Positions 41,107 to 58,420 of a stretch of DNA of 64,000 nt are shown piece after piece. The DNA is taken from positions 1-64,000 of IMG/VR virus record IMGVR_UViG_3300045988_160394; one strand, 5' to 3'. A program made the position numbers and the translations under genes. The notes beneath the pieces are model-generated. The model saw only the letters and a program-made list of their open reading frames with translations. It searched no databases and had not been told where the DNA came from. Each line of letters starts with the position of its first letter. The first letter of the stretch is position 1. This stretch comes from a virus.

Positions 41107-41205
41107 ATGAAATATGTTAATTATATTTTAAACATAATAGTTATTTTTTTACTTATACTTATATTTGATAGGTTAGAATTTATTACTGAGGTGATTGTAA
41201 AATGA
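41107..41205 (+). CDS. possible small membrane protein (32 aa)
   Basis: Hydrophobic micro-ORF with an ATGA overlap onto the ligA start; ends TGA. Confidence 0.3.
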   Translation: MKYVNYILNIIVIFLLILIFDRLEFITEVIVK

Positions 41206-43238
41206 GTTTAGGAAAAGAAGCTCTAAGAGGCATATTAAAAGCATATGAAGAAGCTTATTATTCTGGTGAAAGTGTTGTATCAGATGAAGAATATGATGGA
41301 TTAAAAGACTTGTACGTAGAAATGTATGGGGAATACGACTTTGTTCCAGGAGAAGGAAATACAGAGTTTGAAAAAGTAAAGCATTTATATCCATTAAAAT
41401 CTTTAGAAAAAGTTCAATTAAATGATCCAGATTTAAAAGAGAAAGTTAGAAAAATGTTACCATTAGTTATTCAACCTAAATTTGATGGATTATCAATAGA
41501 AATAACTAAGGTTAATGGTAAACTTAAATTTGTTACTAGAGGTAACGGAGAAGAAGGAGACGATGTAACTGCTCAATGTATGCAAATAGAAGGAATAGAA
41601 GAGCTATTAAATTTATTTGACAATGAAGAACAATCATTTAGAGCAGAAATTTTAATGTTTCATTCCGATTTTGAAAAGCTAAATAAACAAAGAGCTGAAG
41701 ACGGTTTAGAATTATTTAAGAACTGTAGAAATGCTGCTGCTGGAATGCTTAGAAATACAAACGATTTATCTAAGATAAATGGATTAACAATAATGTTATA
41801 TGAAGATTTATCTTCAATAGATACTCAAACAAATGTAATATGTTATATGCAAAATAAATTAAAAAACCCTGAATCAAATATATTAATATCTCCAACATTT
41901 TTATATATAGATGATGAAGAATATTTAGAAAAAGCTATTAAAAAACTACATTCATTAGAAGAGTTTAGAACAGAAATCGATTATGATATAGATGGATGGG
42001 TTATTAAATCTAATAAGTATAACAGTTTAGAATTGTTTGGAGGATATACAGGGCATCATCCTAAAAACGCTTTTGCTGTTAAAGGAGAAGCTAAAGGAGA
42101 ATGGACTAAAATAAAATCTATTACATGGCAAGTAGGTAAAGAAAATATAACTCCTGTAGCAGAATTAGAACCAGTTGAAATAACAGGATCAACTATAGAA
42201 AGAGCTACACTTCATAATGTATCTTTCTTAAAAGCTATTGGATTAACATCTTTAGAGTACAAAGATAAATATGGAACACAACCTTTAACAATGGTTAGAG
42301 TAGTAAAAGCTAATGATGTTATACCTAGAATAATAGAAGTAAAAAATCCTGAAAATGAAGACAATGCTCATAGTTATTCTAATATAATTCATCCACCAAG
42401 TAAATGTCCAGTATGTGGAGCACCTACAGCTATTAAAGATACTGAATCAGATAGTGAAATACTTATATGTACAGGGAATAATTGTCCTGCTAAAATGCAA
42501 AGAAAAATGGAGCTTATGTCTTCAAGAGAAGCTTTTAATATAACAGGACTATCAGAAGGAACTATAGCTAAAATAATAGATACATTTGATTTAGAAAGCT
42601 ATAGAGATGTATTATTAATGAATAAAGAAGATATTTTAAAATTGGATGGTTTTGCTGAAAAATCAGCTGATAAATTAGAAAAGGCAATTTATAAAGCTAG
42701 AGAAACTCAACCAATAGATAAAGTATTGTATGCTTCATGTATTCCGTTAATAGGAAGAGATGCTTGTAAGAAAATATTTGAATATTATACTATAAAAGAG
42801 TTTGAAGAAATATTAGAGAAAGATGAAGAAGATGCATTAAAAGATTTAACAGCTATACCTACAATAGGAGAAAAAATGGCTAAATCTTTATATGATAATA
42901 AGATAGAATATTATTATACTTCAGAATATATTTATCGTATGACAGATATAAAGAAAGAAGATAAAAAAGAAGTAAAGAATCAAAAAACTTTTTGTATCAC
43001 AGGACAAAGAGAGCCATTTAAGACTATAATAGAAGAAGCTGGTCATAAAGTAACAGGTTCTGTTTCTAAGAAAACAGATGCTTTAGTATGCTATATACCA
43101 GACGAAGAAGACACTCCTGATAGAAAGAAATCATCTAAAGAAAAGAATGCAGAAAAATTAGGAATAAAGATACTAAGAACTGAACCAGCTTTAAGAAACT
43201 ATATCAATGGTATAGATTGTGGTTTTATGTTTAAATAA
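41202..43238 (+). CDS. ligA: NAD+-dependent DNA ligase
   Basis: Domain Ia (YY.GESVVSDEEYD.L), adenylation motif KFDG (K93, nt 41478-41480), OB fold, Cys4 zinc finger CPVCG...CTGNNCPA, HhH region, C-terminal BRCT (KTFCITGQ). Confidence 0.95.
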   Translation: MSLGKEALRGILKAYEEAYYSGESVVSDEEYDGLKDLYVEMYGEYDFVPGEGNTEFEKVKHLYPLKSLEKVQLNDPDLKEKVRKMLPLVIQPKFDGLSIEITKVNGKLKFVTRGNGEEGDDVTAQCMQIEGIEELLNLFDNEEQSFRAEILMFHSDFEKLNKQRAEDGLELFKNCRNAAAGMLRNTNDLSKINGLTIMLYEDLSSIDTQTNVICYMQNKLKNPESNILISPTFLYIDDEEYLEKAIKKLHSLEEFRTEIDYDIDGWVIKSNKYNSLELFGGYTGHHPKNAFAVKGEAKGEWTKIKSITWQVGKENITPVAELEPVEITGSTIERATLHNVSFLKAIGLTSLEYKDKYGTQPLTMVRVVKANDVIPRIIEVKNPENEDNAHSYSNIIHPPSKCPVCGAPTAIKDTESDSEILICTGNNCPAKMQRKMELMSSREAFNITGLSEGTIAKIIDTFDLESYRDVLLMNKEDILKLDGFAEKSADKLEKAIYKARETQPIDKVLYASCIPLIGRDACKKIFEYYTIKEFEEILEKDEEDALKDLTAIPTIGEKMAKSLYDNKIEYYYTSEYIYRMTDIKKEDKKEVKNQKTFCITGQREPFKTIIEEAGHKVTGSVSKKTDALVCYIPDEEDTPDRKKSSKEKNAEKLGIKILRTEPALRNYINGIDCGFMFK

Positions 43239-43264
43239 GAGGGGTTATCCCTCTTATTCTTTTT
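43237..43264 (+). terminator. Rho-independent terminator
   Basis: AAGAGGG / CCCTCTT stem, 5-nt loop, ATTCTTTTT tail. Confidence 0.7.
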
Positions 43265-43293
43265 ACATAATATATAGTAATGGGGGAGTAAAA

Positions 43294-43740
43294 ATGGCTT
43301 TAAAAGAAAAAGATATTGTAAATCATTTATGTGAAAATTGGGAAGCATATTTCCCTGAATTAAAAGGATGTAAAAAAGAATATTCTTTTAGAGATTCAAG
43401 AGTAGATATTTTATCTTCTATTCCTGTAGATTTGTATGAAGAAGGTATAAGAGAAGAAGATGATCCTTTTAGATATACAAATGCAGCTGTTTTTATAGAA
43501 GTGAAATTTAATTCTGAAATGAGAGACTTGCTATTTGAATTAAAAAAACATATAGATTTTAGAAATTGGTATATAGAATATGGAAAATCTTTATGCTATA
43601 TAGTTGTTATATCTGATAAGTTTGAACCTAATATGGTTAAATTTATGGAAGAGAATGATATAACAATGTTTAAATATACAATAGAAAACGAAGATTTAAA
43701 TACATTAAAAATTGAAGAATATGAAACTGTAAAAAGTTAA
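43294..43740 (+). CDS. hypothetical protein, possible PD-(D/E)xK nuclease fold
   Basis: ATG 43294 after GGGGGAG (ORF-track 43219 starts inside ligA and the terminator); RVDIL ... FIEVKF fits a D...ExK pattern. Weak evidence. Confidence 0.5.
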   Translation: MALKEKDIVNHLCENWEAYFPELKGCKKEYSFRDSRVDILSSIPVDLYEEGIREEDDPFRYTNAAVFIEVKFNSEMRDLLFELKKHIDFRNWYIEYGKSLCYIVVISDKFEPNMVKFMEENDITMFKYTIENEDLNTLKIEEYETVKS

Positions 43741-43758
43741 AGGGGAAGATTTGGACAT

Positions 43759-44178
43759 ATGTATATTAAAGATAAATATAGAAATAAAAAAAATATAACT
43801 CAAGTAAGAAGAGGAGATATAATATGGTTAGATAAGAAAACTATTTATAGAGTATTAGGAGAAAATGTACAAGACTTAAATAGACCTTATTTAGTAATAT
43901 CAAATGATACTAATAATAAAAATTCGCCTACAATAGGTATTGTTAGTATATCATCACAAACAAGAAAAGCTAAATATCCAATGCATGTATACTTATCTAA
44001 AGAGAAATATACTAATTTATCATATGATAGCATTGCATTGGTAGAACAAGTGAAAACAATTAATAAGGACTTCGTAGTAGAAGTTTCTGATAAATTAGAT
44101 CAAGAAGATATAAATGCTTTAAATAAAGCTATTTTTATTCAATACATAGACGAGACATTACAAACAAAAATTGTTTAG
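43759..44178 (+). CDS. MazF/PemK-family endoribonuclease toxin-like protein
   Basis: RRGDIIWLD...NRPYLVISND.NN....IGIVSISSQTRK..YPMHV.L......DSIALVEQVKTINK tracks the MazF/PemK consensus along its full length. Confidence 0.7.
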   Translation: MYIKDKYRNKKNITQVRRGDIIWLDKKTIYRVLGENVQDLNRPYLVISNDTNNKNSPTIGIVSISSQTRKAKYPMHVYLSKEKYTNLSYDSIALVEQVKTINKDFVVEVSDKLDQEDINALNKAIFIQYIDETLQTKIV

Positions 44179-44190
44179 GAGATGGAGTGT

Positions 44191-44382
44191 ATGAAAGCTA
44201 TATGTATTAATGATAGAAAATGTAGAAATTTATTAAGCTTGGGAGAAGAATATGATGTAGAACCATGTTCTTTTAATAAAAACTGCTTTTCTGTAAAATT
44301 AAAAAATAATACAAAGAAAGGAGTTACTGCTAAAAATCATATGAACTTTAAAAGAGATAGATTCGTAGTAGTAAAGAAATAA
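44191..44382 (+). CDS. hypothetical small protein
   Basis: ATG 44191 is 9 nt after AGGAG (ORF-track start 44182 abuts the RBS). Confidence 0.45.
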   Translation: MKAICINDRKCRNLLSLGEEYDVEPCSFNKNCFSVKLKNNTKKGVTAKNHMNFKRDRFVVVKK

Positions 44383-44384
44383 TT

Positions 44385-44747
44385 ATGTTTAAAGATTGGG
44401 ATAAAAAAGATTTAAAAATAGGACAAGAAGTATATATAGTAGATCAAGGATGGACTTCTAATTTAGATTTAGAAGTAGATACTTACATTGTTTCTGAAAT
44501 TAAAAAAACAGTTATGAAATGTAAAAAAGGTAATTTTGTATTATCTTTTAAAAAAGGTAAGGCTACTTGTTCTAAATATTTCGATAGTTATACTATGTAT
44601 GAAACAAAAGAAGAAGCTCAACAATCAATAGATAATTATTATAATAGAATTAATAATAAAAACTATATAAAAAATAATTTAGCATATTTAAGTGATGAGC
44701 AACTACAGAAAGTAGTTGATTTGATAAAAGAAAATATAAGTAAATAA
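44385..44747 (+). CDS. hypothetical protein (120 aa)
   Basis: ORF starts immediately after the upstream stop; weak RBS. Confidence 0.5.
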   Translation: MFKDWDKKDLKIGQEVYIVDQGWTSNLDLEVDTYIVSEIKKTVMKCKKGNFVLSFKKGKATCSKYFDSYTMYETKEEAQQSIDNYYNRINNKNYIKNNLAYLSDEQLQKVVDLIKENISK

Positions 44748-44766
44748 TACAAAAGGAGATTAAAAA

Positions 44767-45465
44767 ATGGAATCATTAAAAAGACAATTTAAAAATTGGA
44801 CGACGTTAGACTATGCATGGTTAGTCATAGCTAACGCAATAATACTAGGATTAAGTTTATATTGGCAAGATAGTGTTATATCTATAATATCTGCTATTAC
44901 AGGAGTTACATGTGTAATTTTTGTATCTAAAGGAATGATGGCAAACTATATTGTTGGTGCTATTAATGTAGCTTTATATGCATACTTAGCTTTTAAATCT
45001 AGAATATATGGAGACTTTATGTTAAATGCATTTTATTATTTTCCAATGCAATTCATAGGTTTATATATGTGGAGTAAAGCTAGAGATAAAGAAGAAGACC
45101 ATGAAATAAGATCTAAAGCTTTAGACCATAAACAAAGAATAATATTATTTTTAGTGAGTATAGCTGCTATATTAGTTTATGCTGAAATATTAAAGCTATT
45201 AGGAGGAAATGTTCCTATAATAGATTCTACATCAACTGTATTATCTGTAATTGCTATGATATTAATGGTTAAACAATACTTAGAACAATGGTACCTATGG
45301 GTTATAGTAAATGTAGTTTCTATAATAATGTGGGTAATTTCTCTTTCAGAAGGAAGTGGAGATGTAGCTACACTAATAATGTGGATATTATTCTTACTTA
45401 ATAGCTTATATGGTTTATGGAACTGGAAGAAAGAAAATAAAAAGCAAAACAGTAAGGATTGTTAA
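44767..45465 (+). CDS. pnuC: nicotinamide riboside/NMN transporter PnuC
   Basis: About 7 TM helices; W..LDYAWL..., YGDFMLNAFYYFPMQFIGLYMW, ...EQWYLWVIVNV..., C-terminal LYGLWNW, all typical of PnuC. Confidence 0.8.
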   Translation: MESLKRQFKNWTTLDYAWLVIANAIILGLSLYWQDSVISIISAITGVTCVIFVSKGMMANYIVGAINVALYAYLAFKSRIYGDFMLNAFYYFPMQFIGLYMWSKARDKEEDHEIRSKALDHKQRIILFLVSIAAILVYAEILKLLGGNVPIIDSTSTVLSVIAMILMVKQYLEQWYLWVIVNVVSIIMWVISLSEGSGDVATLIMWILFLLNSLYGLWNWKKENKKQNSKDC

Positions 45466-45467
45466 AA

Positions 45468-45728
45468 ATGCTTATAAATATTGAAGAATTAGATCAGTTA
45501 ATGCAAGAAGATACAACTGATTGGAAAAATGTAAAACCAGGCAGTAAAGTTATAGTAGTTAATAGATATCAAAGATATGCACTGAAAAGATATTTCCATT
45601 CTTATAATAAAGAAAATGAAGGTTTCCCTTTTACTGTAGCGTTAACAAAAGATGATAACTTTACTGGAATAAAAGCTATAATAGATGATACTAATTATTC
45701 TATATGTTTTTTATTAGAGGAGGAATAA
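45468..45728 (+). CDS. hypothetical protein
   Basis: ATG 45468 (ORF-track TTG at 45459); no motif. Confidence 0.5.
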   Translation: MLINIEELDQLMQEDTTDWKNVKPGSKVIVVNRYQRYALKRYFHSYNKENEGFPFTVALTKDDNFTGIKAIIDDTNYSICFLLEEE

Positions 45729-45731
45729 AAT

Positions 45732-45962
45732 ATGATGATAATAGATTTAAAATCAGCACATGTCTATCGTTCTATTAGTGAAGTATTTTATCAAAATCCT
45801 GAATTAGAAAAAAATAGACAAAAAGTTATAGATCAATTAAACAAAACAGATTATTATAAAGATAAAAATACTTTTTTATGTGATATAAATAAATATGAGC
45901 TTATAAAAAACGAATATGAAAGTTTTATAACAAAATTAAATGAAGTATTTAATTTAAAATAA
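45732..45962 (+). CDS. hypothetical protein (76 aa)
   Basis: GAGGAGGA RBS; no motif. Confidence 0.5.
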   Translation: MMIIDLKSAHVYRSISEVFYQNPELEKNRQKVIDQLNKTDYYKDKNTFLCDINKYELIKNEYESFITKLNEVFNLK

Positions 45963-45964
45963 AT

Positions 45965-45995
45965 AACAGCGGCTATATGTCGCTGTTTTATTTTT
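45965..45995 (+). terminator. Rho-independent terminator
   Basis: AACAGCG / CGCTGTT stem, 9-nt loop, TTATTTTT tail. Confidence 0.7.
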
Positions 45996-46008
45996 AAGAG
46001 GTGATAAA

Positions 46009-46344
46009 ATGAGTTTAGATGAAGCTATAGAACATTTAAAAGAAAAGTTAGATGAGAATGATTTTATATGTGAAGAATGCAAGAATGAACATAAACAATT
46101 ATTGAAATGGCTATTAGAATTAAAATCTTATAAGAAAAAAGAAGAAGAATACGGCTGTTATTATTTATGTTATTGGAAAAACGAATTTAATGATGATGAA
46201 TCTTTTAAAGATAAATTTATGACAACAACATTTATTGATACAGAAGAAGAATTAAAAAGTAAAATAAAAGAAATAGATGATCAGTTTCCATTATTAGAAG
46301 TTGATTTTTATGGAAGAATGATTGACTTTAAGGAGGATGTTTAA
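46009..46344 (+). CDS. hypothetical protein (111 aa)
   Basis: AAGAGGTG RBS; no motif. Confidence 0.5.
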   Translation: MSLDEAIEHLKEKLDENDFICEECKNEHKQLLKWLLELKSYKKKEEEYGCYYLCYWKNEFNDDESFKDKFMTTTFIDTEEELKSKIKEIDDQFPLLEVDFYGRMIDFKEDV

Positions 46345-46346
46345 TT

Positions 46347-46571
46347 ATGCCAAGAGAAAAAACTTTTTATTATTGCAATATTTGTGATGTATGTTATCAT
46401 GACAAAAATAAAGCTGAAGAATGCGAAAATTCACACTTTATAGTTAAAAACATTAAAAAAGTAAAATACAATCAAGACTATAAAGTAAGATATCCTGATT
46501 CAATACTTATTGAAATGGAAAACGGAAAAGGTGAAAAGAAAGAAATAAGATATTTTAGAAGAGGAGTTTAA
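46347..46571 (+). CDS. zinc-ribbon small protein
   Basis: AAGGAGGA RBS; CNICDVC ... CENSH. Confidence 0.5.
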   Translation: MPREKTFYYCNICDVCYHDKNKAEECENSHFIVKNIKKVKYNQDYKVRYPDSILIEMENGKGEKKEIRYFRRGV

Positions 46572-46575
46572 TATT

Positions 46576-46974
46576 ATGAAAGATATGTTAAAAAAGATAA
46601 TTCACAAGACATTAGATGTAATACTTTTTATTTTTAAACATATATTTTTGATCATAGGTTTAATATTTATAGCATTTTCTATTATTGGTTTAAATATTGG
46701 AGCTGATAAATATGATTGTTTATTTATAATGATTTATGGATTCTTTTTCATTTCATCTTATTATGCTGAAGCAATAGCTAAAGTAAAAGCTGATAAGGTA
46801 AAAATACAATATGAAGAAGATTTATGTGATTTAACAGAACATTTAATAAGAGTAGTAAAATCAATCAATAGAAGTGCTGCTACACAAAACAGACTTAATC
46901 AGCAACTTTGTAAAGAAATAAAAGCATTAAAAAAAGAAATTAAAGAATTAAAGGAAGAGAATAAAAATGGGTAA
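46576..46974 (+). CDS. membrane protein with C-terminal coiled coil
   Basis: AGAGGAG RBS; two or three TM helices, then a heptad region. Confidence 0.5.
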   Translation: MKDMLKKIIHKTLDVILFIFKHIFLIIGLIFIAFSIIGLNIGADKYDCLFIMIYGFFFISSYYAEAIAKVKADKVKIQYEEDLCDLTEHLIRVVKSINRSAATQNRLNQQLCKEIKALKKEIKELKEENKNG

Positions 46975-47395
46975 TAAAAACGTAAAAGGCAGTATGAGCT
47001 GCTTTGGATGTATTTTTTCATGTGCATTATTTATTTTTATAATTTGTATGGGAGTATTGTTTTTAGGAGCTGTTTCTAAAAGTGCAGAAGAAAATAATTC
47101 AACTTATGTTGCTCCAGAACCAGAAGTAATGTATTATAAAACAATTCCTGTTGAAGTTGTAGACATTAAAAATACATGGAACAATGCAAAAACTAATACA
47201 TATATTTATAGTATAACAGTTAAATCTGAAGAATATGGATTAAATAAAACATTAGATATAAAAAACGGTTATCCATATTTTTATGAAGCTTATACTGGAC
47301 AAATTAAACCAGGAGATATTATTAATGCTGAATTAATATCTTATAAGCAAGGTGATACTGTTACTCGAAGATATATAAATCAATTAAAAAATTAA
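46967..47395 (+). CDS. membrane-anchored protein
   Basis: Overlaps the upstream stop; N-terminal TM helix. Confidence 0.5.
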   Translation: MGNKNVKGSMSCFGCIFSCALFIFIICMGVLFLGAVSKSAEENNSTYVAPEPEVMYYKTIPVEVVDIKNTWNNAKTNTYIYSITVKSEEYGLNKTLDIKNGYPYFYEAYTGQIKPGDIINAELISYKQGDTVTRRYINQLKN

Positions 47396-47404
47396 TTATG
47401 ATAC

Positions 47405-47457
47405 AATATTAAGGGCGGCCCCTCTTTTTGGGCTTCGCCCAATATTATTTAAGGGGG
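47405..47457 (+). promoter_or_regulatory. conserved intergenic cassette, copy A (second copy at 62893-62957)
   Basis: AATATTAAG, GC-rich hairpin, T-run, GGGC-TTC-GCCC mini-hairpin, TTATTTAAGGGGG; copy B carries a compensatory change (GTGC-TTC-GCAC). Confidence 0.4.
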
Positions 47458-47465
47458 ATATTTTT

Positions 47466-47726
47466 ATGAAAAAACACAGATATTGACTAAGAAGAAAAGG
47501 ACGTACATATAGTGTTATTTTTAATAACAAAGAGAGGACCGATATGATAATATTATTTATGCAATTTAGTTTTAAAGACTTTTGTTTTAAACCTAAAGCA
47601 TTATCTTTAGATAAAGATACAATAGCTATTAAATGGTTATTTATATATTTCGGTTTTATGCAAAAAGATAGTAGATATAAATGGCATCATGTTTTAGATA
47701 TACCAGATAAAGAAAGAAAGGATTGA
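47466..47726 (+). CDS. hypothetical protein with in-frame TGA at codon 7 (47484-47486)
   Basis: ATG 47466 sits 7 nt after GGGGGA; the ORF-track start 47544 has no RBS; same frame throughout if TGA is read. Confidence 0.4.
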
Positions 47727-47733
47727 TATTTAT

Positions 47734-48545: not shown

Positions 48546-48555
48546 AAATTTAATA

Positions 48556-48585: not shown

Positions 48586-48621
48586 ATTGAAATAATAAAT
48601 AAAATGTAAGGGAGAATTTTA

Positions 48622-49528: not shown

Positions 49529-49544
49529 TAAAGGAGTGTTTTTT

Positions 49545-50254: not shown

Positions 50255-50295
50255 GTACATATAAGAGGAAATTTATATTAAAGGAGATTATTGAT

Positions 50296-51636
50296 ATGGC
50301 AACTAAATGTATAAAAATAGCTTTTGATTTTGCAAAAGATAATACTATAGATAAAAAAGATTTTTATAAAGAATTAAGAGATATAAATTATAAAACATGG
50401 TTGGCTTGTAATAGAGCTATTACTTACTTTTATACTAACGATATGCAGAATATGGTTCAAAAAGATATTGGTATTCCTAAACAAGATGATAAAGAACTGT
50501 TTGGAAAAAGTTTCGGAGCTTGGGTAGAAAACAGAATGAATGAGTTAATGGAAGGATGTTTATCTACTAATGTAGCTCAAACAAGACAATTTGTTGCTAA
50601 TAGATATGCTCAAGATAAAAAGAATGGGCTATTTAAAGGTCAAGTATCTTTAACTCAATTTAAAAAAGATATACCAATAATAGTTCATAATAAAGCTTAT
50701 AATATTATAGATACTGATAAAGGATTAGGTGTAGAAGTAAGTCTTTTTAATAAAGAAAAACAGAAAGAATTAAACGTTAAAAAGATTAAATTAGTATTTC
50801 CTAAATTAGATGGATCTTCTAAAGCTACGCTAATTAAAATAATGGATAAAACTTATAAACAAGGTTCAATACAAATAACTTATAATGAAAGAAAAAGAAA
50901 ATGGATGATGATTATAAGTTATACTTTTGAAGCTATTAAAGATGAAACATTAAATGAAGATATTACATTAGGAATAGATTTAGGTATAGTTAATGTGGCT
51001 ACTATGTCTTTATATGATTCTAAAAATAATAGTTTTAATAGCATAGCTTGGAAAGAAAGAATTATACCAGGGGATGAGCTTATACATTATAGACAAAAGA
51101 TAGAAGCTAGAAGAAAATCTTTATATATAGCTACTAAATGGTCTAGTGATAATGCTTCAGGCCATGGTTATAAAAGAAAAACAAAGACAGCTAATAAAAT
51201 AAGTGATAAGTATTCAAGATTTAGAGATACTTATAATCATAAGATATCTAGATATATAGTAGATTTAGCTATTAAACATAAAGCTAAGAATATACAAATG
51301 GAAGACTTAAGTGGTTTTTCAGATTATCAATCAGAAAGTTTATTAGCTAACTGGAGTTACTACGATCTTCAACAAAAGATAAAATATAAAGCCGAAGGAA
51401 AAGGTATTAATGTTATATTCATTAATCCACAATATACTTCTAAAAGATGTAGTAAATGTGGTAATATACACGAAGAGAATAGAGATTGTAAAAACAATCA
51501 GGCTAAATTCGAATGTATAGTATGCGGTCATAAAGAGAATGCAGATATAAATGCTAGTAAGAATATAGCTATACCACAAATTGATACTGTAATAAAAGAA
51601 TATATAAAAGATAAAAAAGAGGCTGCTATAAGTTAG
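50296..51636 (+). CDS. cas12f: miniature RNA-guided nuclease, Cas12f-type (TnpB-derived), 446 aa
   Basis: RuvC-I GIDLG (D228, nt 50977-50979), RuvC-II IQMEDL (E336, 51301-51303), zinc ribbon YTSKRCSKCG...CIVCG, RuvC-III NADINASKNIA (D417, 51544-51546). From memory, the C-terminal 220 aa run collinear with Firmicute Cas12f1 proteins (..FRDT.NH..SRYIVD.AIK.....IQMEDL...NW.YYDLQQKI.YKAE..GI.V..I.PQYTS.RCS.CG). Confidence 0.85.
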   Translation: MATKCIKIAFDFAKDNTIDKKDFYKELRDINYKTWLACNRAITYFYTNDMQNMVQKDIGIPKQDDKELFGKSFGAWVENRMNELMEGCLSTNVAQTRQFVANRYAQDKKNGLFKGQVSLTQFKKDIPIIVHNKAYNIIDTDKGLGVEVSLFNKEKQKELNVKKIKLVFPKLDGSSKATLIKIMDKTYKQGSIQITYNERKRKWMMIISYTFEAIKDETLNEDITLGIDLGIVNVATMSLYDSKNNSFNSIAWKERIIPGDELIHYRQKIEARRKSLYIATKWSSDNASGHGYKRKTKTANKISDKYSRFRDTYNHKISRYIVDLAIKHKAKNIQMEDLSGFSDYQSESLLANWSYYDLQQKIKYKAEGKGINVIFINPQYTSKRCSKCGNIHEENRDCKNNQAKFECIVCGHKENADINASKNIAIPQIDTVIKEYIKDKKEAAIS

Positions 51637-51717
51637 TAGTCTCTTTAGCTATATTTAAAGACCGTAGGGCAGGAAGAACTATATCTAAAAATGGAATGAT
51701 AGAATTGGTTATAAAAT

Positions 51718-51856
51718 AAAGGTTGATTTACCAGCCTAAAGATGAGATAGTGATTTCTATTAGAAATAATACTCTCATTAAACGCTCCAACTAGATTGGT
51801 AAAAGGCTAGTGCAAAACAATAATATTATTGGGCGTGTACTAGGATATAGCTTTTG
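51718..51856 (+). ncRNA. tracrRNA/omegaRNA-like structured RNA, copy 1
   Basis: Nested stems TTTACCA(51727-33)/TGGTAAA(51797-803) and ATGAGA(51742-47)/TCTCAT(51773-78); conserved in copy 2 with compensatory changes; ends in CTTTTG. Strand and ends are inferred. Confidence 0.55.
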
Positions 51857-52018
51857 TTAATATTTAATAAAATGATTTAAATATAAGGGTTTAATATTAA
51901 CATAAGATGTATTTAAATTTAAACAATCTATGTGTAGGACAGTTCCTGTACTAAGTTTAATATTAACATAGGATGTATTTAAATGTAGAATCAATATTAG
52001 CATAAGGTATATTTTAAT
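51855..52018 (+). CRISPR. mini CRISPR-like array 1
   Basis: Two 30-nt repeats, GTTTAATATTAACATAAGATGTATTTAAAT (51889-51918) and the same with one mismatch (51955-51984), separated by 36 nt. Degenerate repeat copies flank them at 51855-51882 and 51989-52018. Confidence 0.5.
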
Positions 52019-52081
52019 TTACTCCAAGTAGTTCATTATAAAAGCATATTTAATGACTTTCAATATAATTTATAAAAAGAT

Positions 52082-52246
52082 AAAGGGTGTTTTACCATCC
52101 TAAAAGTGAGAAAGTGATTTTGGAAACGGCTTAAATGATAAGCTTAAAATAAATTTAATACTCTCACTAAACGCTCCAATAAAGTTATTGGTAAAAAGCT
52201 AGTGCAAAATGATTAAATTCAGGCGTGTACTAGAATACATTTTTTA
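52082..52246 (+). ncRNA. tracrRNA/omegaRNA-like structured RNA, copy 2
   Basis: Homologous to copy 1 with a roughly 25-nt larger variable loop; stems TTTACCA(52091-97)/TGGTAAA(52189-95) and AGTGAGA(52105-11)/TCTCACT(52162-68); ends in a small hairpin plus TTTTTATT. Confidence 0.55.
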
Positions 52247-52277
52247 TTAAAGTAAACGGATTGGCTTAAATATACTG

Positions 52278-52338
52278 GTTGAACTTTAACAAGAATTGTA
52301 TTTAAAGATGTGCTCTTTTGGCACTAATGTATTTAAAG
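52278..52338 (+). CRISPR. degenerate CRISPR-like unit 2
   Basis: GTTGAACTTTAACAAGAATTGTATTTAAAG (about 22/30 identity to the array-1 repeat), then 20 nt (ATGTGCTCTTTTGGCACTAA), then an 11-nt repeat 3' fragment TGTATTTAAAG. Confidence 0.35.
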
Positions 52339-52382
52339 AAATATTAATTAAGATTTGATATTGATATATATGTTAAAATAAA

Positions 52383-52408
52383 TACTCTTCCCAATTGAGG
52401 GAAGAGTA
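52383..52408. other. GC-containing hairpin closing the non-coding locus
   Basis: TACTCTTCCC / GGGAAGAGTA stem with AATTGA loop; no T-run on the + strand (an A-run lies upstream), so its terminator role is unclear. Confidence 0.35.
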
Positions 52409-52426
52409 AAGTTAAAGGAGATTTTT

Positions 52427-52993
52427 ATGATATTGTATCATGTAAGTGAAAATTTGAACAATTATATTGATGTTTTCTATCCAAGAATACCATCTGAAGA
52501 TAGAATGTGTCTAGGAGAAAATATTTCCATAAAAAGAGTATGCGTATCATCAAATATAGCTGGAGCTTTTTCTGCTATGCCAAGAGAAGATGATATAGCT
52601 AATAAGAAGTTTAGAGTATATGAATTTGAATTAGACGAAAAAGATAAAGATTTATTAGATTATAAAACAATATATAATAGAAATTATGTTCAAGATAGTT
52701 TATGTACTAAAGAACATTGGATATTAAAAAATATTAAGCCATCAAGGCATTATGATATAATAGTAAAAAGTTATGATAATGAATTGATACCTGTTTTACG
52801 TAAAGATTTATGGAAAACTTATTTTAATACATACGCAGATGATCAAGATGCTTTCTTAGAGAAAAACGGTGGCTTTTTAATGTCAGCTTTTAAAAAAGTA
52901 TTTTATATAAAAGATAATGTCGAATTTATATCTGAAAATGATATATATGAATATTTAAATTATGATAGGAGTGATATTAATGGTTTATATTAA
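52427..52993 (+). CDS. hypothetical protein (188 aa)
   Basis: AAAGGAG RBS; no motif recognised. Confidence 0.55.
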   Translation: MILYHVSENLNNYIDVFYPRIPSEDRMCLGENISIKRVCVSSNIAGAFSAMPREDDIANKKFRVYEFELDEKDKDLLDYKTIYNRNYVQDSLCTKEHWILKNIKPSRHYDIIVKSYDNELIPVLRKDLWKTYFNTYADDQDAFLEKNGGFLMSAFKKVFYIKDNVEFISENDIYEYLNYDRSDINGLY

Positions 52994-53207
52994 AGTTTAT
53001 GATAGATATATAAACAAGCCAATAGATCAATTTAAATTAAATATAAATGCAGAAAAGCTTTCAGTTGGAGATCGTATTATTTGTAATAAAAAGAATGGTA
53101 CATCAGAAGAGTATAGGATTAAATCAATACGCCATGAAATAGCATTTGAAGGCGGATATGAAGAAGATGTAGCTGCATATAAAAAAACAATAATAGAAGT
53201 AAATTAA
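52980..53207 (+). CDS. hypothetical protein
   Basis: ATG 52980 is 7 nt after TAGGAGTG (ORF-track start 52962). Confidence 0.5.
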   Translation: MVYIKVYDRYINKPIDQFKLNINAEKLSVGDRIICNKKNGTSEEYRIKSIRHEIAFEGGYEEDVAAYKKTIIEVN

Positions 53208-53233
53208 TACTTATAAATAAGGGGAGATATTAT

Positions 53234-54466
53234 ATGAGCCGTAAATATTGTACAAGAAACGCTTGTGAAAACGAAAAATTAATAGATAAATGTACATGTT
53301 GTTTCGATTGTGATCTTATTGGAGAATGTGAAGCAGAAGTTAAATGTATCATAAGAACAAAGGACAATTATATGGATTGTCCTTTTATAGGAAAAAGAAT
53401 TAATGAAGGGGAGACTACTATGAATAAAATAAATGATTTACCTAAGGTTGGAGTATTCTTTGGTAAGATGATACCACCTCACAGAGGACATTTAACAGCT
53501 ATTATTAATGCAGCTACTAGATGTCAAAAACTTTATGTTGTAGTAAGTGATAATAAACATACAACAGAAGAAATATGCAGAGAATCAGGTATAAAAAATA
53601 TACCTGTAGAATTAAGAATTCAATGGCTATGTCAAGAGCTTCAAGACTTAGATCATATTAAAGTTGTTGCTCTTGATGAAACACATATACCTGCATATCC
53701 TAATGGATGGGATGAATGGTGTGATTTAATGAGAAAGGCTGTTAAAGAAGATATTGATACTTTCTTTTGTGGAGAAGAAGAATATTGTAAGCAATTAAAA
53801 GAGCATTTCCCAGGTTCAGATGTAATTCTATTTGATCCACAAAGAAATACTTATAATATAAGTGCTACTACAATAAGAACTAATCCTCAAAAACATTGGG
53901 ATCATATATTAGGACCTGCTAGACCATTCTTTGCTAAGAGAGTATTAATAGCAGGGACTGAAAGTACAGGGAAGACTACAATGGTTAAGTACTTAGCTAA
54001 ATTATATAATACTTCATGGTCAGAAGAAGTAGGAAGATATTATGCTTCTAAATTCCTAGGAGGAAATGAAGAAATTTTTACTGATGAAGATTTTACTAGA
54101 ATAGCATATCAACAAATAGAACAAGATTACGCAGCTCTTAGAAGTTGTAATAGAGTTTGTTTCTTTGATACTGATCCAACAGTTACTCAATACTATTCTA
54201 CTTTATATATGGGGCATAAAAACCTTGAAGTAGAATCAGCTATTAATCCAACTAAATATGATATTGTTATATTATTAAAACCAGATGTTGAATGGGTTGA
54301 TGATGGACAAAGATTAAATGGTGATCAAGAAAAAAGAGAAGAATTACACAATAGATTAAAATATATGTATCTTGAAAGAGGTTTTAAGAACGTTGTTGAA
54401 GTATCTGGAGATTATAATGAAAGATTAACAGCTATTATAAATATTGTTGATGATTTATTAAAGTAA
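53234..54466 (+). CDS. nadR: NadR-type bifunctional NMN adenylyltransferase / ribosylnicotinamide kinase, with Cys-rich N-terminal extension and no HTH domain
   Basis: Nucleotidyltransferase motif GVFFGKMIPPHRGH...VVVSD, ISATTIR, then Walker A IAGTESTGKTT plus EEVGRYY and a D..P..T..Y region typical of the RNK domain. Confidence 0.85.
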   Translation: MSRKYCTRNACENEKLIDKCTCCFDCDLIGECEAEVKCIIRTKDNYMDCPFIGKRINEGETTMNKINDLPKVGVFFGKMIPPHRGHLTAIINAATRCQKLYVVVSDNKHTTEEICRESGIKNIPVELRIQWLCQELQDLDHIKVVALDETHIPAYPNGWDEWCDLMRKAVKEDIDTFFCGEEEYCKQLKEHFPGSDVILFDPQRNTYNISATTIRTNPQKHWDHILGPARPFFAKRVLIAGTESTGKTTMVKYLAKLYNTSWSEEVGRYYASKFLGGNEEIFTDEDFTRIAYQQIEQDYAALRSCNRVCFFDTDPTVTQYYSTLYMGHKNLEVESAINPTKYDIVILLKPDVEWVDDGQRLNGDQEKREELHNRLKYMYLERGFKNVVEVSGDYNERLTAIINIVDDLLK

Positions 54467-54518
54467 TCAACATAATCTTATTGATATATAATTATTGAAA
54501 TTGAAAGGATGATTTGAA

Positions 54519-55124
54519 ATGAGAAAGAATAAATACGGAGAGATAACAGAAATAAATAGTGGTAAAACATATACATCTATCAATGAAGTTTGTAATACTT
54601 TAAAAGTAAATAGAAATAGACTTTATAAATTATTTAGAGAAGTAGATATTAATAAACCATATTTAATAGAAATAGATGGATTTAAATTCTCTAAAGCTAT
54701 GAATGTTGATACAACGTTAGCTTATAATAAAGCTAGCAATGTTCAAGTCGTAAAAGATGAAGAAGGTACTTTAGCTCAGCCAGCTAAAGAGGTTGTAGAA
54801 ATGTATTCTGGTAAAACTTTTTCTAGTATTAGAAAGTGTTGTGAATATTATGGTATGTCTATTAATGTTGCGTATAAAAAGCTTTCAAAGACAGGCGTTT
54901 ATGAAGATGAAGATAAAACATTGTTTTTATGTTTAAAAGACTGTATTACTGTTGAAATAACAGATTTAGTAAACAAAAGAATTAAAGAGAAAGAAAATGA
55001 ATATGAAATATTAACAAGTAATAATGGCTCTGTATTTATACTAAAAGAAGATCAAATAGTAAAGAAATGTGTTTCTGCTAAAGATCTATTAGAGAGTGTA
55101 AAGATAAAAGAAGTGATTATTTAA
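54519..55124 (+). CDS. DNA-binding-like protein with two NUMOD1-like HTH repeats
   Basis: Internal repeat: EINSGKTYTSINEVCNTLKVNRNRLYKLF versus EMYSGKTFSSIRKCCEYYGMSINVAYKKL; no nuclease motif seen. Confidence 0.5.
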   Translation: MRKNKYGEITEINSGKTYTSINEVCNTLKVNRNRLYKLFREVDINKPYLIEIDGFKFSKAMNVDTTLAYNKASNVQVVKDEEGTLAQPAKEVVEMYSGKTFSSIRKCCEYYGMSINVAYKKLSKTGVYEDEDKTLFLCLKDCITVEITDLVNKRIKEKENEYEILTSNNGSVFILKEDQIVKKCVSAKDLLESVKIKEVII

Positions 55125-55196
55125 TATATTATAGTATTTGATTGTTAATATAATAATTATTAAAGAATTATTATTAGCAAGAGAGGATTATGGTAT

Positions 55197-55685
55197 ATGA
55201 TAAATAAAGAAATTGGAAAACAAATATTAAATCAAGTTCATTTTGAATTTCAAAGTGAAAGACAATATATAGCTATGGAATATTATTTTAGAAAATTAGA
55301 TCTTAATGGATACGCAGATTTATTTCATGAATATGCATTAGAAGAAAGAAGACATGGATATGATATGTTAGCTTTCCTTGATGATTGGAATTATCCTATT
55401 ATAATTAATATGGACCAAAGAGAAATTATTAATACATTCCAATCACCATTAGATGTATTTGAAAAAGCTTTAGAACATGAAAAAGAAATAACAGCTGCTA
55501 TCGTAAAGATATGCAACAATGCTGTTAAATGTGGAGACGTTATATCTAAAGAATTCTTAAATAAGTATTTAACAGAACAAAGAGAAGAAGAAGATAAGAT
55601 GCAAACTAGATTAATGAGATTGAAATTAGCTGGTTCAGATAGCTCAGCAATTTTATTGTTAGATCATGAAGATGGTAAGCATTAA
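55197..55685 (+). CDS. ferritin-like protein (non-heme ferritin family)
   Basis: Four-helix ferroxidase pattern: E..SERQYIAME.YF....L.GYA..F...A.EERRHG..M..FL ... ALEHEKEIT. Confidence 0.8.
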   Translation: MINKEIGKQILNQVHFEFQSERQYIAMEYYFRKLDLNGYADLFHEYALEERRHGYDMLAFLDDWNYPIIINMDQREIINTFQSPLDVFEKALEHEKEITAAIVKICNNAVKCGDVISKEFLNKYLTEQREEEDKMQTRLMRLKLAGSDSSAILLLDHEDGKH

Positions 55686-55692
55686 TATTTAT

Positions 55693-55727
55693 AGGCTATT
55701 ATTAATTTAATAGCCTTATTTTTTTAG
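55693..55727 (+). terminator. Rho-independent terminator
   Basis: AGGCTATT / AATAGCCT stem, 8-nt loop, TATTTTTTT tail. Confidence 0.7.
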
Positions 55728-55739
55728 GAGGGAAAATAT

Positions 55740-56111
55740 ATGTATGATTTACTGTACTACTATGATAGATTAGAATTAGATGAAGTCCTAGAAATCTTTT
55801 TAAAAGATAATGTTAGTAAAGATCATGTAATATCTATATCAAAAAATGATAGTATAAACATTACATCTGCTGTTATTAATGGTAAAATATTTTATGGTAC
55901 AAAGCATTTATCATTTAGTAAAGATAAAACAGGTAACTATCATATTAAAAATAGAAGATATTCACTTAGAGGTAACTGTACTGATAATGAATTAGTTACA
56001 GAAGCAGTTTCTGACAATATGGAATACATTATTAATCCTAACAATATTAGTTTTATAAGAAAATCAAATATAAAAGGAGTTAGTTTTTTTGATGAACAAT
56101 ATCGTCAATAA
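55740..56111 (+). CDS. hypothetical protein (123 aa)
   Basis: TAGGAGGGA RBS; no motif. Confidence 0.5.
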   Translation: MYDLLYYYDRLELDEVLEIFLKDNVSKDHVISISKNDSINITSAVINGKIFYGTKHLSFSKDKTGNYHIKNRRYSLRGNCTDNELVTEAVSDNMEYIINPNNISFIRKSNIKGVSFFDEQYRQ

Positions 56112-56177
56112 AATATAGACAAGTTGTAATGCTTATGGTAAAATTAAACAAGTTAAAGTTGAAAGGTTGTGTTTTAT

Positions 56178-56792
56178 ATGAAAATGACAGTACATGCTGC
56201 ATTAGCAGAATTAAAAAAATTAGATCAAAGAATAAATAGAGCGATTAGGACTGGTAGATTTGTAGGAACTATAAAAGGGGAAAAATCTACTGAAAAAGTT
56301 CAAAATACTACAGAAACCAGAGAAGAATTCAAAGTTAGTGCAAAAGCAGATTTCGATTCAGCTACTGATTTAATAAATAGAAGAAATGAAATTAAGAAAG
56401 CTATTACATTATCTAATGCTACTACTAAAGCACAAGTCGGAACATTAGAAATGACAGTAGCAGAAGCGATCGAAATGAAATCTTCTATAGAGTATAAAAA
56501 AGATTTCAAAAGAGCTTTAGAAATACAATATAGTTCAGCTATTTCTAATATAGAAAGAGCTAATGAAAAAGTTGAAGCTAATATGGATAAAATATTAGAA
56601 TCAATGGGTAAGGATGCTAATAAAGAGTTTATAGATAACTATAGAGCTACTTATAGTTTTTCAATAATAGATCCAATATCTATTAAAGAAAAGATAGAAT
56701 CATTAGCTAAAGAAATAGAAGATTTCGAAAGTAATGTAGATATAGCTTTATCTGTATCTAATGCTACTACTTTTATAGAAATAGAAGATTAA
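56178..56792 (+). CDS. hypothetical helical protein
   Basis: ATG 56178 (ORF-track GTG at 56169); predicted helical/coiled-coil composition. Confidence 0.55.
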   Translation: MKMTVHAALAELKKLDQRINRAIRTGRFVGTIKGEKSTEKVQNTTETREEFKVSAKADFDSATDLINRRNEIKKAITLSNATTKAQVGTLEMTVAEAIEMKSSIEYKKDFKRALEIQYSSAISNIERANEKVEANMDKILESMGKDANKEFIDNYRATYSFSIIDPISIKEKIESLAKEIEDFESNVDIALSVSNATTFIEIED

Positions 56793-57243
56793 TATATAAA
56801 TGGAGATGAGGCTCTTGCCAAAACTCTCCTTTTATGTTAATATATATATAAATTAAATAACACACAATATCTGACTTATTGTGGGCATAGCGAAAAGACA
56901 AACTATAAGATCCTTTAAAAGATAGGTTAATTCTTTTGCTAACAAGTGATATTTTGGGATATATCAAATAATAGATTTTATTGTTTTTAAAGATGAAAAA
57001 CAAGCTATAACATCTTTTCTGAATGAGAAAACATGTTTACCTTAGTGTTTTTTAAATATGTATTAAAAGCTTAAATCTTAAAGATTAAATCTCATAAGTT
57101 CAAGCATTAAAGTTCTTTATTTTATTTAAAGGTTAAGAGTTAAAAGATAAAGATTGATAAAATCCTGGGTTAAAGGTTATGAGGTAATCTTATATTGCTC
57201 TGTTTAATCCTCCAGGCAGCTATGTTCACAATATATATACATA

Positions 57244-57275
57244 AGGAGAGCCATTGTGGTTCTCTTTTTTATTTT
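57244..57275 (+). terminator. Rho-independent terminator-like hairpin
   Basis: AGGAGAGCC / GGTTCTCTT stem (two G-U pairs), 5-nt loop, TTTTATTTT tail, directly followed by AAGGAGGAG. Confidence 0.5.
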
Positions 57276-57289
57276 AAGGAGGAGATAAA

Positions 57290-57577
57290 GTGGGTAGAAT
57301 TATTTATTGCAGACAACCTAAATATCCTAAACCGCCTATTCCAGGTAGTAGGAAAGATACTTATAATGAAATAGTTAAAAAAGAACATTATGGAGTAGAA
57401 GTTTGAGAAAATGTAATTACAGACAAAGTAAGAAAAACTAAATGCTTATGTTTTAATTGCAGAAAACTAGGTAAATGTGATATAGCAAATCATTTATATC
57501 AATTTTGCAAAAAGAATAATATCGCACTAATGATGACAAGATGTAAGGAATTTGATTTTGAAGGAGAGTGTAATTAA
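57290..57577 (+). CDS. Cys-rich protein with in-frame TGA (57404-57406)
   Basis: GTG start 7 nt after AAGGAGGAG; the frame is open for 95 codons if TGA is read (..HYGVEV-TGA-ENVITDK..); CLCFNC..C..C motif downstream of the TGA. Confidence 0.45.
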
Positions 57578-57578
57578 A

Positions 57579-57824
57579 ATGAACGTTAGAATAGGTATAG
57601 ATGAACAACCATGTCTTGAAGTTGGAGATGCTGTTGTAGCAAAAGACAAGTTTTATATAGTACGTGTTGAGAGTGGACAATATATAGCAAGATGTATTAA
57701 TGATGGCTATGGACTTACTGGATTACATGGAACATTAAGAAGATTACAAGAATCTTTAGAAAAAGAAAATGCAAAAATATATCCTAAGAGTAAATACGAA
57801 TTAGTCTTAAGAGAAAAAAGATAA
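57579..57824 (+). CDS. hypothetical protein
   Basis: ATG 57579 after GAAGGAGAG (ORF-track TTG at 57552 lies inside the upstream ORF). Confidence 0.5.
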   Translation: MNVRIGIDEQPCLEVGDAVVAKDKFYIVRVESGQYIARCINDGYGLTGLHGTLRRLQESLEKENAKIYPKSKYELVLREKR

Positions 57825-57838
57825 AGGGAGATAAACTA

Positions 57839-58420
57839 ATGAATAAATTAAAGTCTTTAGAACAGCAAACTAATAATAGATATTTAAACGTTTATAAAGC
57901 TAAATATGAAAATAAAGAAAAGAAAACTGAATATGAATATTATATAGCTACTAGAAGAAAAAGAGAAGATATGGCTTGTGTAGCTAAAGATAAAAATAAA
58001 ACAGATGCTGTTATGATAGTTCCAACTGATCCAGTTACTGACAACATGTATTTAATAAAACAGTTTAGACCTGCTGTTAATGATTATGTAATAGAATTCC
58101 CTGCTGGTTTAGTTGATCCTGGTGAAACAGAAGAGCAAACAGTAGCGAGAGAATTATATGAAGAAACTGGATTAATAGCTGAAATGATAAACTTAACCGT
58201 ACCTTCATCATATACTTCTGTTGGAATGACAGATGAAAAAGTAGCAGTATATACAGCTATTGTTTCAGGTAAACCTAATACAAATAATCTTATGGATAAT
58301 GAAGACATAGAAATATTAACTATTAAATCTTCTGATTTAAATGATGTTATTAATGGAGTATATGGTGAAGTATCTATAAAGACAAGAATAATATTAACGT
58401 TTTTAAATCTAACATGTTAA
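57839..58420 (+). CDS. Nudix hydrolase, ADP-ribose pyrophosphatase-like
   Basis: Perfect Nudix box GLVDPGETEEQTVARELYEETGL (Gx5Ex7REUxEExGU), preceded by EFPAG as in the NudF/ADPRase subfamily. Confidence 0.75.
   Translation: MNKLKSLEQQTNNRYLNVYKAKYENKEKKTEYEYYIATRRKREDMACVAKDKNKTDAVMIVPTDPVTDNMYLIKQFRPAVNDYVIEFPAGLVDPGETEEQTVARELYEETGLIAEMINLTVPSSYTSVGMTDEKVAVYTAIVSGKPNTNNLMDNEDIEILTIKSSDLNDVINGVYGEVSIKTRIILTFLNLTC

Follow-up and report, generated by a model that had tools for sequence, protein, structure and literature searches.

A candidate split NARP3-type NAD+ reconstitution pathway in a gut jumbo phage

The first 64,000 nucleotides of the IMG/VR virus record IMGVR_UViG_3300045988_160394 (the whole analysed stretch, hereafter the window) belong to a gut jumbo phage of about 263 kb and contain, within 17 kb, five genes connected to NAD+ chemistry: an NAD+-dependent DNA ligase (LigA), a nicotinamide riboside (NR) transporter of the PnuC type, a NADAR-domain protein, a NadR-like enzyme and a Nudix hydrolase (Table 1). 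The window has a G+C content of 25% and a strong purine skew, and essentially all of its open reading frames (ORFs) lie on the plus strand. An interpretation made earlier from the nucleotide letters (the sequence-only reading) had grouped these five ORFs as one NAD+/ADP-ribose gene set; all of them are present at the positions in Table 1 on the plus strand, and the identities proposed, with the Nudix protein as an ADP-ribose-pyrophosphatase-like enzyme, are backed by family models and by matches to solved structures. The exact NadR protein is encoded on the 263,172-bp metagenomic contig ENA ERZ1756024 NODE_19; it occurs on nine contigs in all and falls into a cluster of 22 members at 90% identity. 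A megablast search of the 17-kb span against INPHARED returned just one 78-bp match at chance level, and the span therefore has no close phage relative in that collection.

Table 1. Features of the window, those of the NAD+ genes first (SD, Shine-Dalgarno sequence).
Feature	Coordinates	Strand or placement	Basis
LigA, NAD+-dependent DNA ligase, 678 aa	41202..43238	+	Pfam, NCBIfam models
pnuC, nicotinamide riboside transporter, 232 aa	44767..45465	+	PF04973, TIGR01528, 4QTN
NADAR-domain protein, YbiA-like, 147 aa	49545..49988	+	PF08719, TIGR02464
nadR, full ORF	53234-54466	+	NF005988
NadR N-terminal extension, in frame, 62 residues, 9 Cys, orphan	53234..53419	+	Continuous ORF, own SD and ATG
nadR core, NMN adenylyltransferase and ribosylnicotinamide kinase, residues 63-410	53420..54466	+	NF005988, 9x6f/9x6h
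Nudix hydrolase, ADP-ribose/ADP-sugar pyrophosphatase-like, 193 aa	57839..58420	+	PF00293, PDB matches
Cas12f effector, 446 aa, Pfam TnpB/OrfB_IS605	50296-51636 (locus to 52340)	Between NADAR and NadR	AsCas12f structures
Mini CRISPR repeats	51889-51918, 51955-51984, 52278-52307	3' of Cas12f	Rfam CRISPR-DR3
YAcAr (SLOG-superfamily) protein and DHH/DHHA1 phosphoesterase	30270-31115 and 39738-40703		
PemK/MazF-type toxin ORF, 139 aa	43759-44178	Between LigA and PnuC	PF02452, precomputed annotation
Probable homing endonuclease, 201 aa	54519-55124	Directly 3' of NadR	Weak I-HmuI NUMOD-like match
Conserved non-coding stretch, ~180 nt	57066-57242		66% identity to L001 intergenic 17705-17900
Terminator-like hairpin	57243-57267	After the conserved non-coding stretch	
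CCA-adding enzyme with HD domain and RlaP-type RNA-repair nucleotidyltransferase	14204-15550, 25917-27161		
Thy1/ThyX-domain ORF (ThyX fragment), 128 aa	59872-60258	Abuts GroEL gene directly	
GroEL/Cpn60 homologue, intein-containing, 876 aa	60258-62888		Pfam
Two PcfJ-like proteins; FolD; ferritin; YyaC-like DUF1256 protein			

Phage-encoded NadR, NADAR, Nudix and NAD+-dependent ligases were catalogued by Iyer et al. (2022; PMC9503650), and gut "NAD-jumbo phages" with pnuC, nadR and LigA were described by Li et al. (Microbiome, 2024; PMC11662467). A NadR-PnuC operon was proposed as a further phage NAD+ reconstitution pathway by Osterman et al. (2024), and Yan et al. (Sci Adv, 2026; PMC13464706) named the pair NARP3, demonstrated NR binding and import as well as the conversion of NR to nicotinamide mononucleotide (NMN) and NAD+, solved crystal structures, and reported rescue from the defence systems Sir2-HerA and DSR1. 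The published range of NARP3 comprises 124 phages, mostly of Salmonella and Escherichia. The pathway logic of the sequence-only reading, in which PnuC imports NR and NadR converts it via NMN to NAD+, was right, judging by the homologous pair Bas30_86/Bas30_87 (PMC13464706). Its view that the phage pathways known so far rely on different enzyme pairs, so that PnuC-NadR would be a different solution, is outdated, as the pair was hypothesised in 2024 and validated in 2026. The window is a distant new example of NARP3 and not a new mechanism.

The match of NadR to the family model NF005988 (249 bits against a cut-off of 201) is restricted to profile positions 63-406 of 411, and the protein therefore lacks the helix-turn-helix (HTH) domain. 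As in NARP3, the window thus encodes a bifunctional NadR-like enzyme that unites NMN adenylyltransferase and ribosylnicotinamide kinase without HTH. The best solved structures are 9x6f and 9x6h (Bas30_86; E = 1e-70), followed by Haemophilus influenzae NadR (1LW7; E = 5e-57), and the motifs HxGH (H83-H86), ISATTIR (209-215), the P-loop GTESTGKT (241-248), FFDTD and WVDDGQR are all intact. We equate the 9x6f chain with Bas30_86 because every one of the 17 residues that the NARP3 paper names is found in it at its published number (with an offset of 6); the stand-in for Bas30_86 was the NadR of E. coli phage Wa28, which shows one difference from 9x6f across 343 compared residues. Eight of the 17 are identical in the window protein (K78, S105, E149, P153, G158, F178, I209 and D343) and four are replaced conservatively (D115 by E183, E230 by D298, and R167/K168 by K235/R236), while K163 (P231), D164 (F232), S112 (G180), V139 (Y207) and F11 (M79) are not conserved. 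Overall identity is about 38% to the NadRs of T5-like phages, themselves nearly identical to the crystallised Bas30_86. In an AlphaFold2 (AF2) model the core is mostly confident, with an overall predicted template-modelling score of 0.70.

The second half of the pair, a phage-encoded PnuC-type NR transporter, is likewise present. The window protein matches PF04973 over its full length (170 bits) and TIGR01528 with 165 bits (cut-off 42), and it aligns over residues 7-227 with the PnuC of Neisseria mucosa (4QTN; E = 3e-48). Of the three residues that were tested for NR binding in Bas30_87, two are kept (Q94 as Q95 and N180 as N182). Since the canonical motifs are intact and most of the tested residues are conserved, NadR and PnuC both look catalytically competent, as far as primary structure allows a prediction.

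Homologues of both proteins are spread over deposited phages, with tblastn hits for NadR in 779 and for PnuC in 878 of 50,697 records (about 1.5-1.7%), many of them already annotated as nadR or pnuC. The host profiles of the two are nearly identical and include Vibrio, Salmonella, Klebsiella, Escherichia, Bacillus, Prevotella, Erwinia and others. The absence of the enterobacterial HTH domain, to which the sequence-only reading had drawn attention, is confirmed by the NF005988 alignment, but it is not special to this phage: HTH is missing from Bas30_86 and, with few exceptions, from the 120 best metagenomic homologues, which mostly measure 342-362 aa. The same holds for the nearest cellular NadRs, which come from gut and rumen Christensenellales (Candidatus Limiplasma, Egerieenecus), share 57-63% identity with the window protein and measure about 347 aa; the lack of HTH is therefore ancestral to this NadR branch and not a phage innovation. 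These cellular and related loci were retrieved with an alignment of 17 sequences as query, a single NadR protein having given nothing, and the Christensenellales NadR loci have a G+C content of about 58%. Among the 80 closest bacterial NadR loci, not one has PnuC within 3 kb, so that the PnuC-NadR linkage is a phage-side feature; a Nudix gene is nearby in seven of these loci.

The closest NadR homologues are encoded on metagenomic contigs of 226-264 kb. Two contigs, L001 (251 kb) and L005 (249.5 kb), show the order YAcAr-DHH-...-PnuC-...-NADAR-...-NadR-AAA-...-Nudix over a span of 7-9 kb, with PnuC 87-90% identical to that of the window, a NADAR of 64-69% identity between PnuC and NadR, and the Nudix gene in the syntenic place 3' of NadR. 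The small genes between PnuC, NADAR, NadR and Nudix vary in L001 and L005, and because the order persists although the intervening genes differ, the grouping of these four goes beyond chance. In a further relative (L094) the Nudix gene stands directly 3' of NadR. In three more distant jumbo-phage relatives (L006, L092 and L093; NadR 68-69% identical) pnuC is found immediately 5' of nadR, the two are also adjacent in L099, and they abut in E. coli phage Wa28, Bacillus phage C30-3 and Vibrio phage 11895-B1. Adjacency is an organisational feature which the chemistry does not need, and the distance between pnuC and nadR in the window is explained by extra cargo that has stretched the shared backbone: an SPFH protein, a Cas12f-CRISPR locus, an HNH-like endonuclease and a ferritin. 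The sequenced flank 5' of PnuC in L001 and L005 contains no LigA gene; the space between DHH and PnuC is occupied there by a dCMP deaminase. The proposed five-gene grouping consequently survives as a conserved neighbourhood of PnuC, NADAR, NadR and Nudix, but LigA, which is not syntenic in the relatives, has to be taken out of it.

It is quite possible, though in our view short of probable, that even these genes form no single system and are independent modules in a variable early-gene region, with PnuC and NadR serving NR salvage, NADAR the de-ADP-ribosylation of DNA, the Nudix enzyme nucleotide-sugar housekeeping or RNA decapping, and LigA replication. The position of LigA fits this explanation, as do the unrelated cargo that separates the genes (to the items above the PemK toxin must be added), the terminator-like hairpins between them, which are enriched in the region (15 observed against 2.8 expected), and the retention of PnuC-NadR alone in L006, L092 and L093. 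Moreover, the joint occurrence of NADAR, Macro, SLOG and Nudix domains is general among large phages (PMC9503650). The survival of the four-gene order in L001 and L005 despite replaced intervening genes, and the Nudix gene that directly follows NadR in L094, speak for a connection nonetheless.

Several neighbours of the NAD+ genes deserve mention in their own right. The YAcAr and DHH genes of the window have counterparts that stand adjacent to each other just 5' of the PnuC region in L001 (4701-5994) and L005 (2094-3417); they may share the conflict theme of the NAD+ genes, because a role in sensing or processing nucleotides derived from ADP-ribose is predicted for SLOG domains. For the PemK/MazF-type ORF no obvious antitoxin was identified, and PemK homologues are found about 8 kb 3' of NadR in L006, L092 and L093. 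The ORF directly 3' of NadR is probably a homing endonuclease, and a 40%-identical homologue sits 5' of NadR in L005, which suggests selfish-element traffic around nadR. The conserved non-coding stretch that precedes a terminator-like hairpin matches no Rfam family; it could encode a small RNA or act as a regulatory region. Near the NAD+ genes neither an NAD+ riboswitch (nadA or pnuC motif) nor any other Rfam family was detected, and a scan for sigma-70 promoters gave the level of shuffled sequence (135 found against 137 expected) and was not used.

The NADAR protein is assigned to its family by PF08719 (110 bits, cut-off 35) and TIGR02464 (95 bits, cut-off 74), and its structure matches are E. 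coli YbiA (2B3W; E = 1e-16) and a DarT-associated NADAR (8BAU; E = 7e-10). Its ATG start is that of Table 1, with an alternative GTG at 49536. NADARs undo the ADP-ribosylation of guanine, and phage NADARs neutralise DarTG1 (PMC11543638, PMC11125620, PMC11825919); the likeliest task of the window protein would accordingly be the removal of ADP-ribose adducts from DNA and not salvage. The Nudix hydrolase contains a complete Nudix box (GLVDPGETEEQTVARELYEETGL, residues 90-112), matches PF00293 with 55 bits and resembles NUDT5, Ndx4 and NudF among PDB entries; the best 25 of its 33 matches there are ADP-sugar or ADP-ribose pyrophosphatases or their close kin, with NUDT5 at the top (E = 1e-14). It may be an ADP-ribose/ADP-sugar pyrophosphatase, and such an enzyme next to an NMN adenylyltransferase would recall the NadM/NatV fusions of NARP2. 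LigA has the adenylation, OB, zinc-finger, HhH and BRCT domains expected of the enzyme (Pfam), and its NF005932 score of 352 bits over residues 7-661 falls just below the cut-off of 369. The KxDG motif reads KFDG at residue 93, and the N-terminal SDEEYDGL is domain-Ia-like. LigA appears to be linked to the other genes by chemistry alone, in that it would consume NAD+ and release NMN that the NadR adenylyltransferase could reuse. Pfam searches of 20 more ORFs outside the span gave no further NAD+ salvage enzymes, such as NadV, NadM or PRPP (phosphoribosyl pyrophosphate) synthetase.

Taking together the gene identities, the catalytic motifs, the conserved synteny and the homology to the characterised pair, we consider it likely that the phage encodes a split NARP3-type NAD+ reconstitution pathway with a counter-defence role. 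What we infer from these observations is how the individual proteins act, that they counter defences of this host, and what Nudix and NADAR do. In the proposed pathway PnuC would admit NR into the infected cell by diffusion, the kinase domain of NadR would trap it as NMN, and the adenylyltransferase domain would combine NMN with AMP from ATP to yield NAD+, which would thus be kept available despite host NADase defences of the SIR2, TIR or DSR type. NMN from the phage NAD+-dependent ligase could be re-adenylated by the same enzyme. The Nudix hydrolase would convert free ADP-ribose or ADP-sugars to AMP and sugar phosphate, and NADAR would take ADP-ribose off guanine in DNA and so counter DarT-type toxins. 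The counter-defence idea put forward in the sequence-only reading has since been demonstrated experimentally for the homologous phage genes of NARP3 (PMC13464706) and may apply to the window genes by analogy.

A number of observations weigh against this assignment. The adjacent cassette of NARP3 is not found here, since 7,768 bp and 15 genes separate pnuC from nadR, and at least four terminator-like hairpins lie on the coding strand between them; because of this gap, the genes within it, the Cas12f-CRISPR insertion and the hairpins, co-expression of the two is not assured. The residues of Bas30_86 that are changed in NadR include some of site 1, among them K163 (to P) and S112 (to G). In PnuC the third tested NR-binding residue, N45 of Bas30_87, is G46; this position is also Gly in the structurally characterised N. 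mucosa PnuC. The NADAR is nearest to YbiA, which is also an N-glycosidase of riboflavin intermediates, and its sequence is compatible with either activity, and the Nudix protein scores 47.7 bits with the ADPRase family model TIGR00052, below the cut-off of 79.6.

The pathway might also serve metabolic provisioning instead of counter-defence, by supplying NAD+ for LigA, for FolD-type dehydrogenases and for the replication of a 263-kb genome. Such a role has already been proposed for the "NAD-jumbo phages" (Li et al., 2024; PMC11662467) and for vibriophage KVP40; LigA and FolD are encoded in the same region of the phage, and no host NADase defence is documented for it. We nevertheless hold this explanation to be rather unlikely, as an anti-defence phenotype was demonstrated for the homologous pair and as the linkage of the pair with an ADP-ribose-processing Nudix and a NADAR makes most sense against NAD+-derived immunity. 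The two roles are, moreover, compatible with each other.

The NadR of the window has one feature that sets it apart from its relatives. The sequence-only reading had described a Cys-rich N-terminal extension of 65 aa; the extension exists and contains nine cysteines (C6, C11, C20, C22, C23, C26, C32, C38 and C49), but it measures 62 residues before an internal Met63. The long start is preceded by AAGGGGAG(N7)ATG, and Met63 has a strong SD of its own, GGGGAG(N6)ATG. Homology to the L001 NadR, whose core is 89% identical, begins at 53423, that is at the Met63 start. By our estimate from base composition, 62 open codons would arise by chance in such A+T-rich DNA with a probability of about 0.1%, which makes a fortuitous open frame unlikely. 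The extension has no Pfam match at E <= 1 and no match in the related loci, and an exhaustive HMMER search of 1.84 billion representative proteins yielded a single real homologue (P0241) of 90% identity. This variant is 91% identical at the nucleotide level, keeps all nine cysteines, one of them through a synonymous codon change, and differs by six synonymous and six nonsynonymous substitutions, a ratio that indicates weak constraint. It had appeared to be a free-standing 72-aa gene, an interpretation that was rejected because it stems from a truncated 756-bp contig ending in an Illumina adapter; the second HMMER match was a spurious repeat protein. Bacillus phage C30-3 seemed to match NadR residues 24-68, but this proved to be a tblastn over-extension into non-coding DNA, the true ORF of that phage having 345 aa and no extension. 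The AF2 confidence (predicted local distance difference test) of about 30 for residues 1-61 is uninformative. We conclude that the extension is real coding sequence and a recent, lineage-specific orphan addition, and that Met63 can probably serve as a further start for the core enzyme.

The NadR N-terminus of this phage clade is a hot spot of unrelated additions (relatives P0003, P0005, P0007, P0021, P0023 and P0034), which comprise two domains of about 150 aa and three zinc-ribbon or treble-clef types of 70-270 aa (P0007, P0021 and P0023). Three zinc-ribbon-like additions in the clade, together with the cysteines kept in the P0241 variant and an open frame of 62 codons with SD and ATG in DNA of 25% G+C, could point to a functional metal-binding or redox-sensing regulatory domain that replaces the enterobacterial HTH. 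We regard such a domain as improbable, for the extension is missing from the 89%-identical L001 NadR and from nearly all other homologues, belongs to no homologue family or fold detectable with Pfam, HMMER or AF2, has changed under weak constraint, and need not be part of the product, since a short enzyme can start at Met63 with its own SD; a regulatory role may exist but has no support. Still more speculative, and in our opinion very improbable, is an expansion of NARP3, in this Clostridium jumbo-phage lineage, to a conserved four-part island (PnuC, NADAR, NadR and Nudix) that would both rebuild NAD+ and clear the ADP-ribose products of NAD+-based immunity, with the Cys-rich module of NadR as a metal or redox sensor and a short isoform from the internal start tuning the pathway. 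If true, it would add a regulatory layer undescribed for any phage NAD+ pathway. Several other NadR homologues, of about 660 aa, carry an intein in the kinase P-loop.

The Cas12f-CRISPR locus, which the sequence-only reading had missed in its NAD+ gene span, lies within that span but is not part of the NAD+ finding. Its effector was listed by Pfam as TnpB, an identity that had to be replaced by Cas12f, since AsCas12f structures match over the full length with E = 5e-69; the RuvC residues D228, E336 and D417 are kept. Two duplicated units of about 220 nt, resembling trans-activating CRISPR RNA (tracr) scaffolds, follow 3' of the effector, each succeeded by CRISPR repeats, and base pairing between the anti-repeat and the first repeat gives a stable fold (z = -3.45). 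In sister phages, whose effectors are 96-99% identical, other spacers are found, which suggests that the arrays are active; one of these spacers matches a gene on the Clostridium perfringens plasmid pCPCPN17a_1 at 34 of 35 positions. The closest cellular Cas12f homologues (74-77% identity) are encoded by C. perfringens phage-plasmids of about 50 kb with the same architecture, whose spacers have their matches in rival phage-plasmids, namely in tape-measure, DUF6673 and PH-domain genes, and all four protospacers examined are flanked by 5'-TTYA. An effector, an array with variable spacers, an anti-repeat and a 5' T-rich protospacer-adjacent motif, which were the features tested for type V-F (Cas12f), are thus all present, and the locus, as read from its sequence, shows a phage-borne type V-F system apparently aimed at competing mobile elements. 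Neither cas1 nor cas2 was found in the surrounding 20 kb, the spacer of the window itself has no protospacer in INPHARED, PLSDB, IMG/VR or the JGI metagenomes, and no GTDB genome contains an exact copy of its repeat. L001 and L005 lack the locus at this position. Family matches of the window genes are consistent with a jumbo phage of a spore-forming Firmicute, and because of the Cas12f relatives and protospacers in C. perfringens phage-plasmids and plasmids, the host is probably a gut Clostridium, C. perfringens or a close relative.

Further genes of the window touch other functions. The GroEL/Cpn60 homologue is split by a LAGLIDADG/Hom_end intein-like insertion at about residues 294-357 (Pfam). 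The ThyX-domain ORF next to it has about half the usual size and could represent a truncated thymidylate synthase or part of a split one. The CCA-adding enzyme and the RlaP-type nucleotidyltransferase suggest a capability for tRNA or RNA repair; ARAGORN found no tRNA genes in the window.

The known mechanism of NARP3 is unchanged by these findings, but its range is widened to a distant lineage of gut jumbo phages with Gram-positive hosts. Since pnuC and nadR need not be adjacent, surveys based on operons will undercount the pathway. The company of NADAR and Nudix raises the possibility that NAD+ rebuilding and ADP-ribose clean-up are deployed together.

Among known systems, NARP3 itself (Bas30_86 and Bas30_87 of Escherichia phage TrudiRoth and other T5-like phages) is closest: the same two families, a NadR without HTH, the catalytic motifs of both domains, the conserved Gln and Asn of the PnuC NR pocket, and the same predicted chemistry. 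It differs in that the window NadR shares about 38% identity with it and would act in a Gram-positive Clostridium host instead of Enterobacteriaceae, in that the genes are 7.8 kb apart where NARP3 is an abutting two-gene cassette, and in the 62-residue Cys-rich NadR N-terminus and the conserved NADAR and Nudix neighbours of the window. Where the two genes are adjacent, their order is pnuC-nadR in the relatives of the window and nadR-pnuC in the T5-like phage Wa28. The "NAD-jumbo phages" (PMC11662467) resemble the window phage in genome size (>200 kb), in their origin from animal and human gut metagenomes, and in their pnuC, nadR or nadM and NAD+-dependent ligase genes; they were presented as a catalogue without biochemical tests in which clustered nadR-nadM-pnuC sets are highlighted, whereas the window genes are dispersed and neither NadM nor NadV occurs among them. 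NARP2, represented by NadV and NatV (an NMNAT-Nudix fusion) of KVP40, shares the endpoint of an NMN adenylyltransferase (NMNAT) associated with an ADP-ribose-pyrophosphatase-type Nudix. It obtains NMN from nicotinamide and PRPP via Nampt and has the Nudix fused to NMNAT, whereas in the window NMN would come from imported NR through the kinase, and the Nudix gene is separate, 3.4 kb 3' of NadR. The bacterial NadR-PnuC systems of H. influenzae and Salmonella likewise combine a transporter with a bifunctional enzyme and trap NR by phosphorylation, but enterobacterial NadR has the HTH repressor domain that the window protein lacks. Finally, the orphan NADARs that phages use against DarTG1 (PMC11825919, PMC11543638) are stand-alone proteins like that of the window, which is nearest to the YbiA subfamily.

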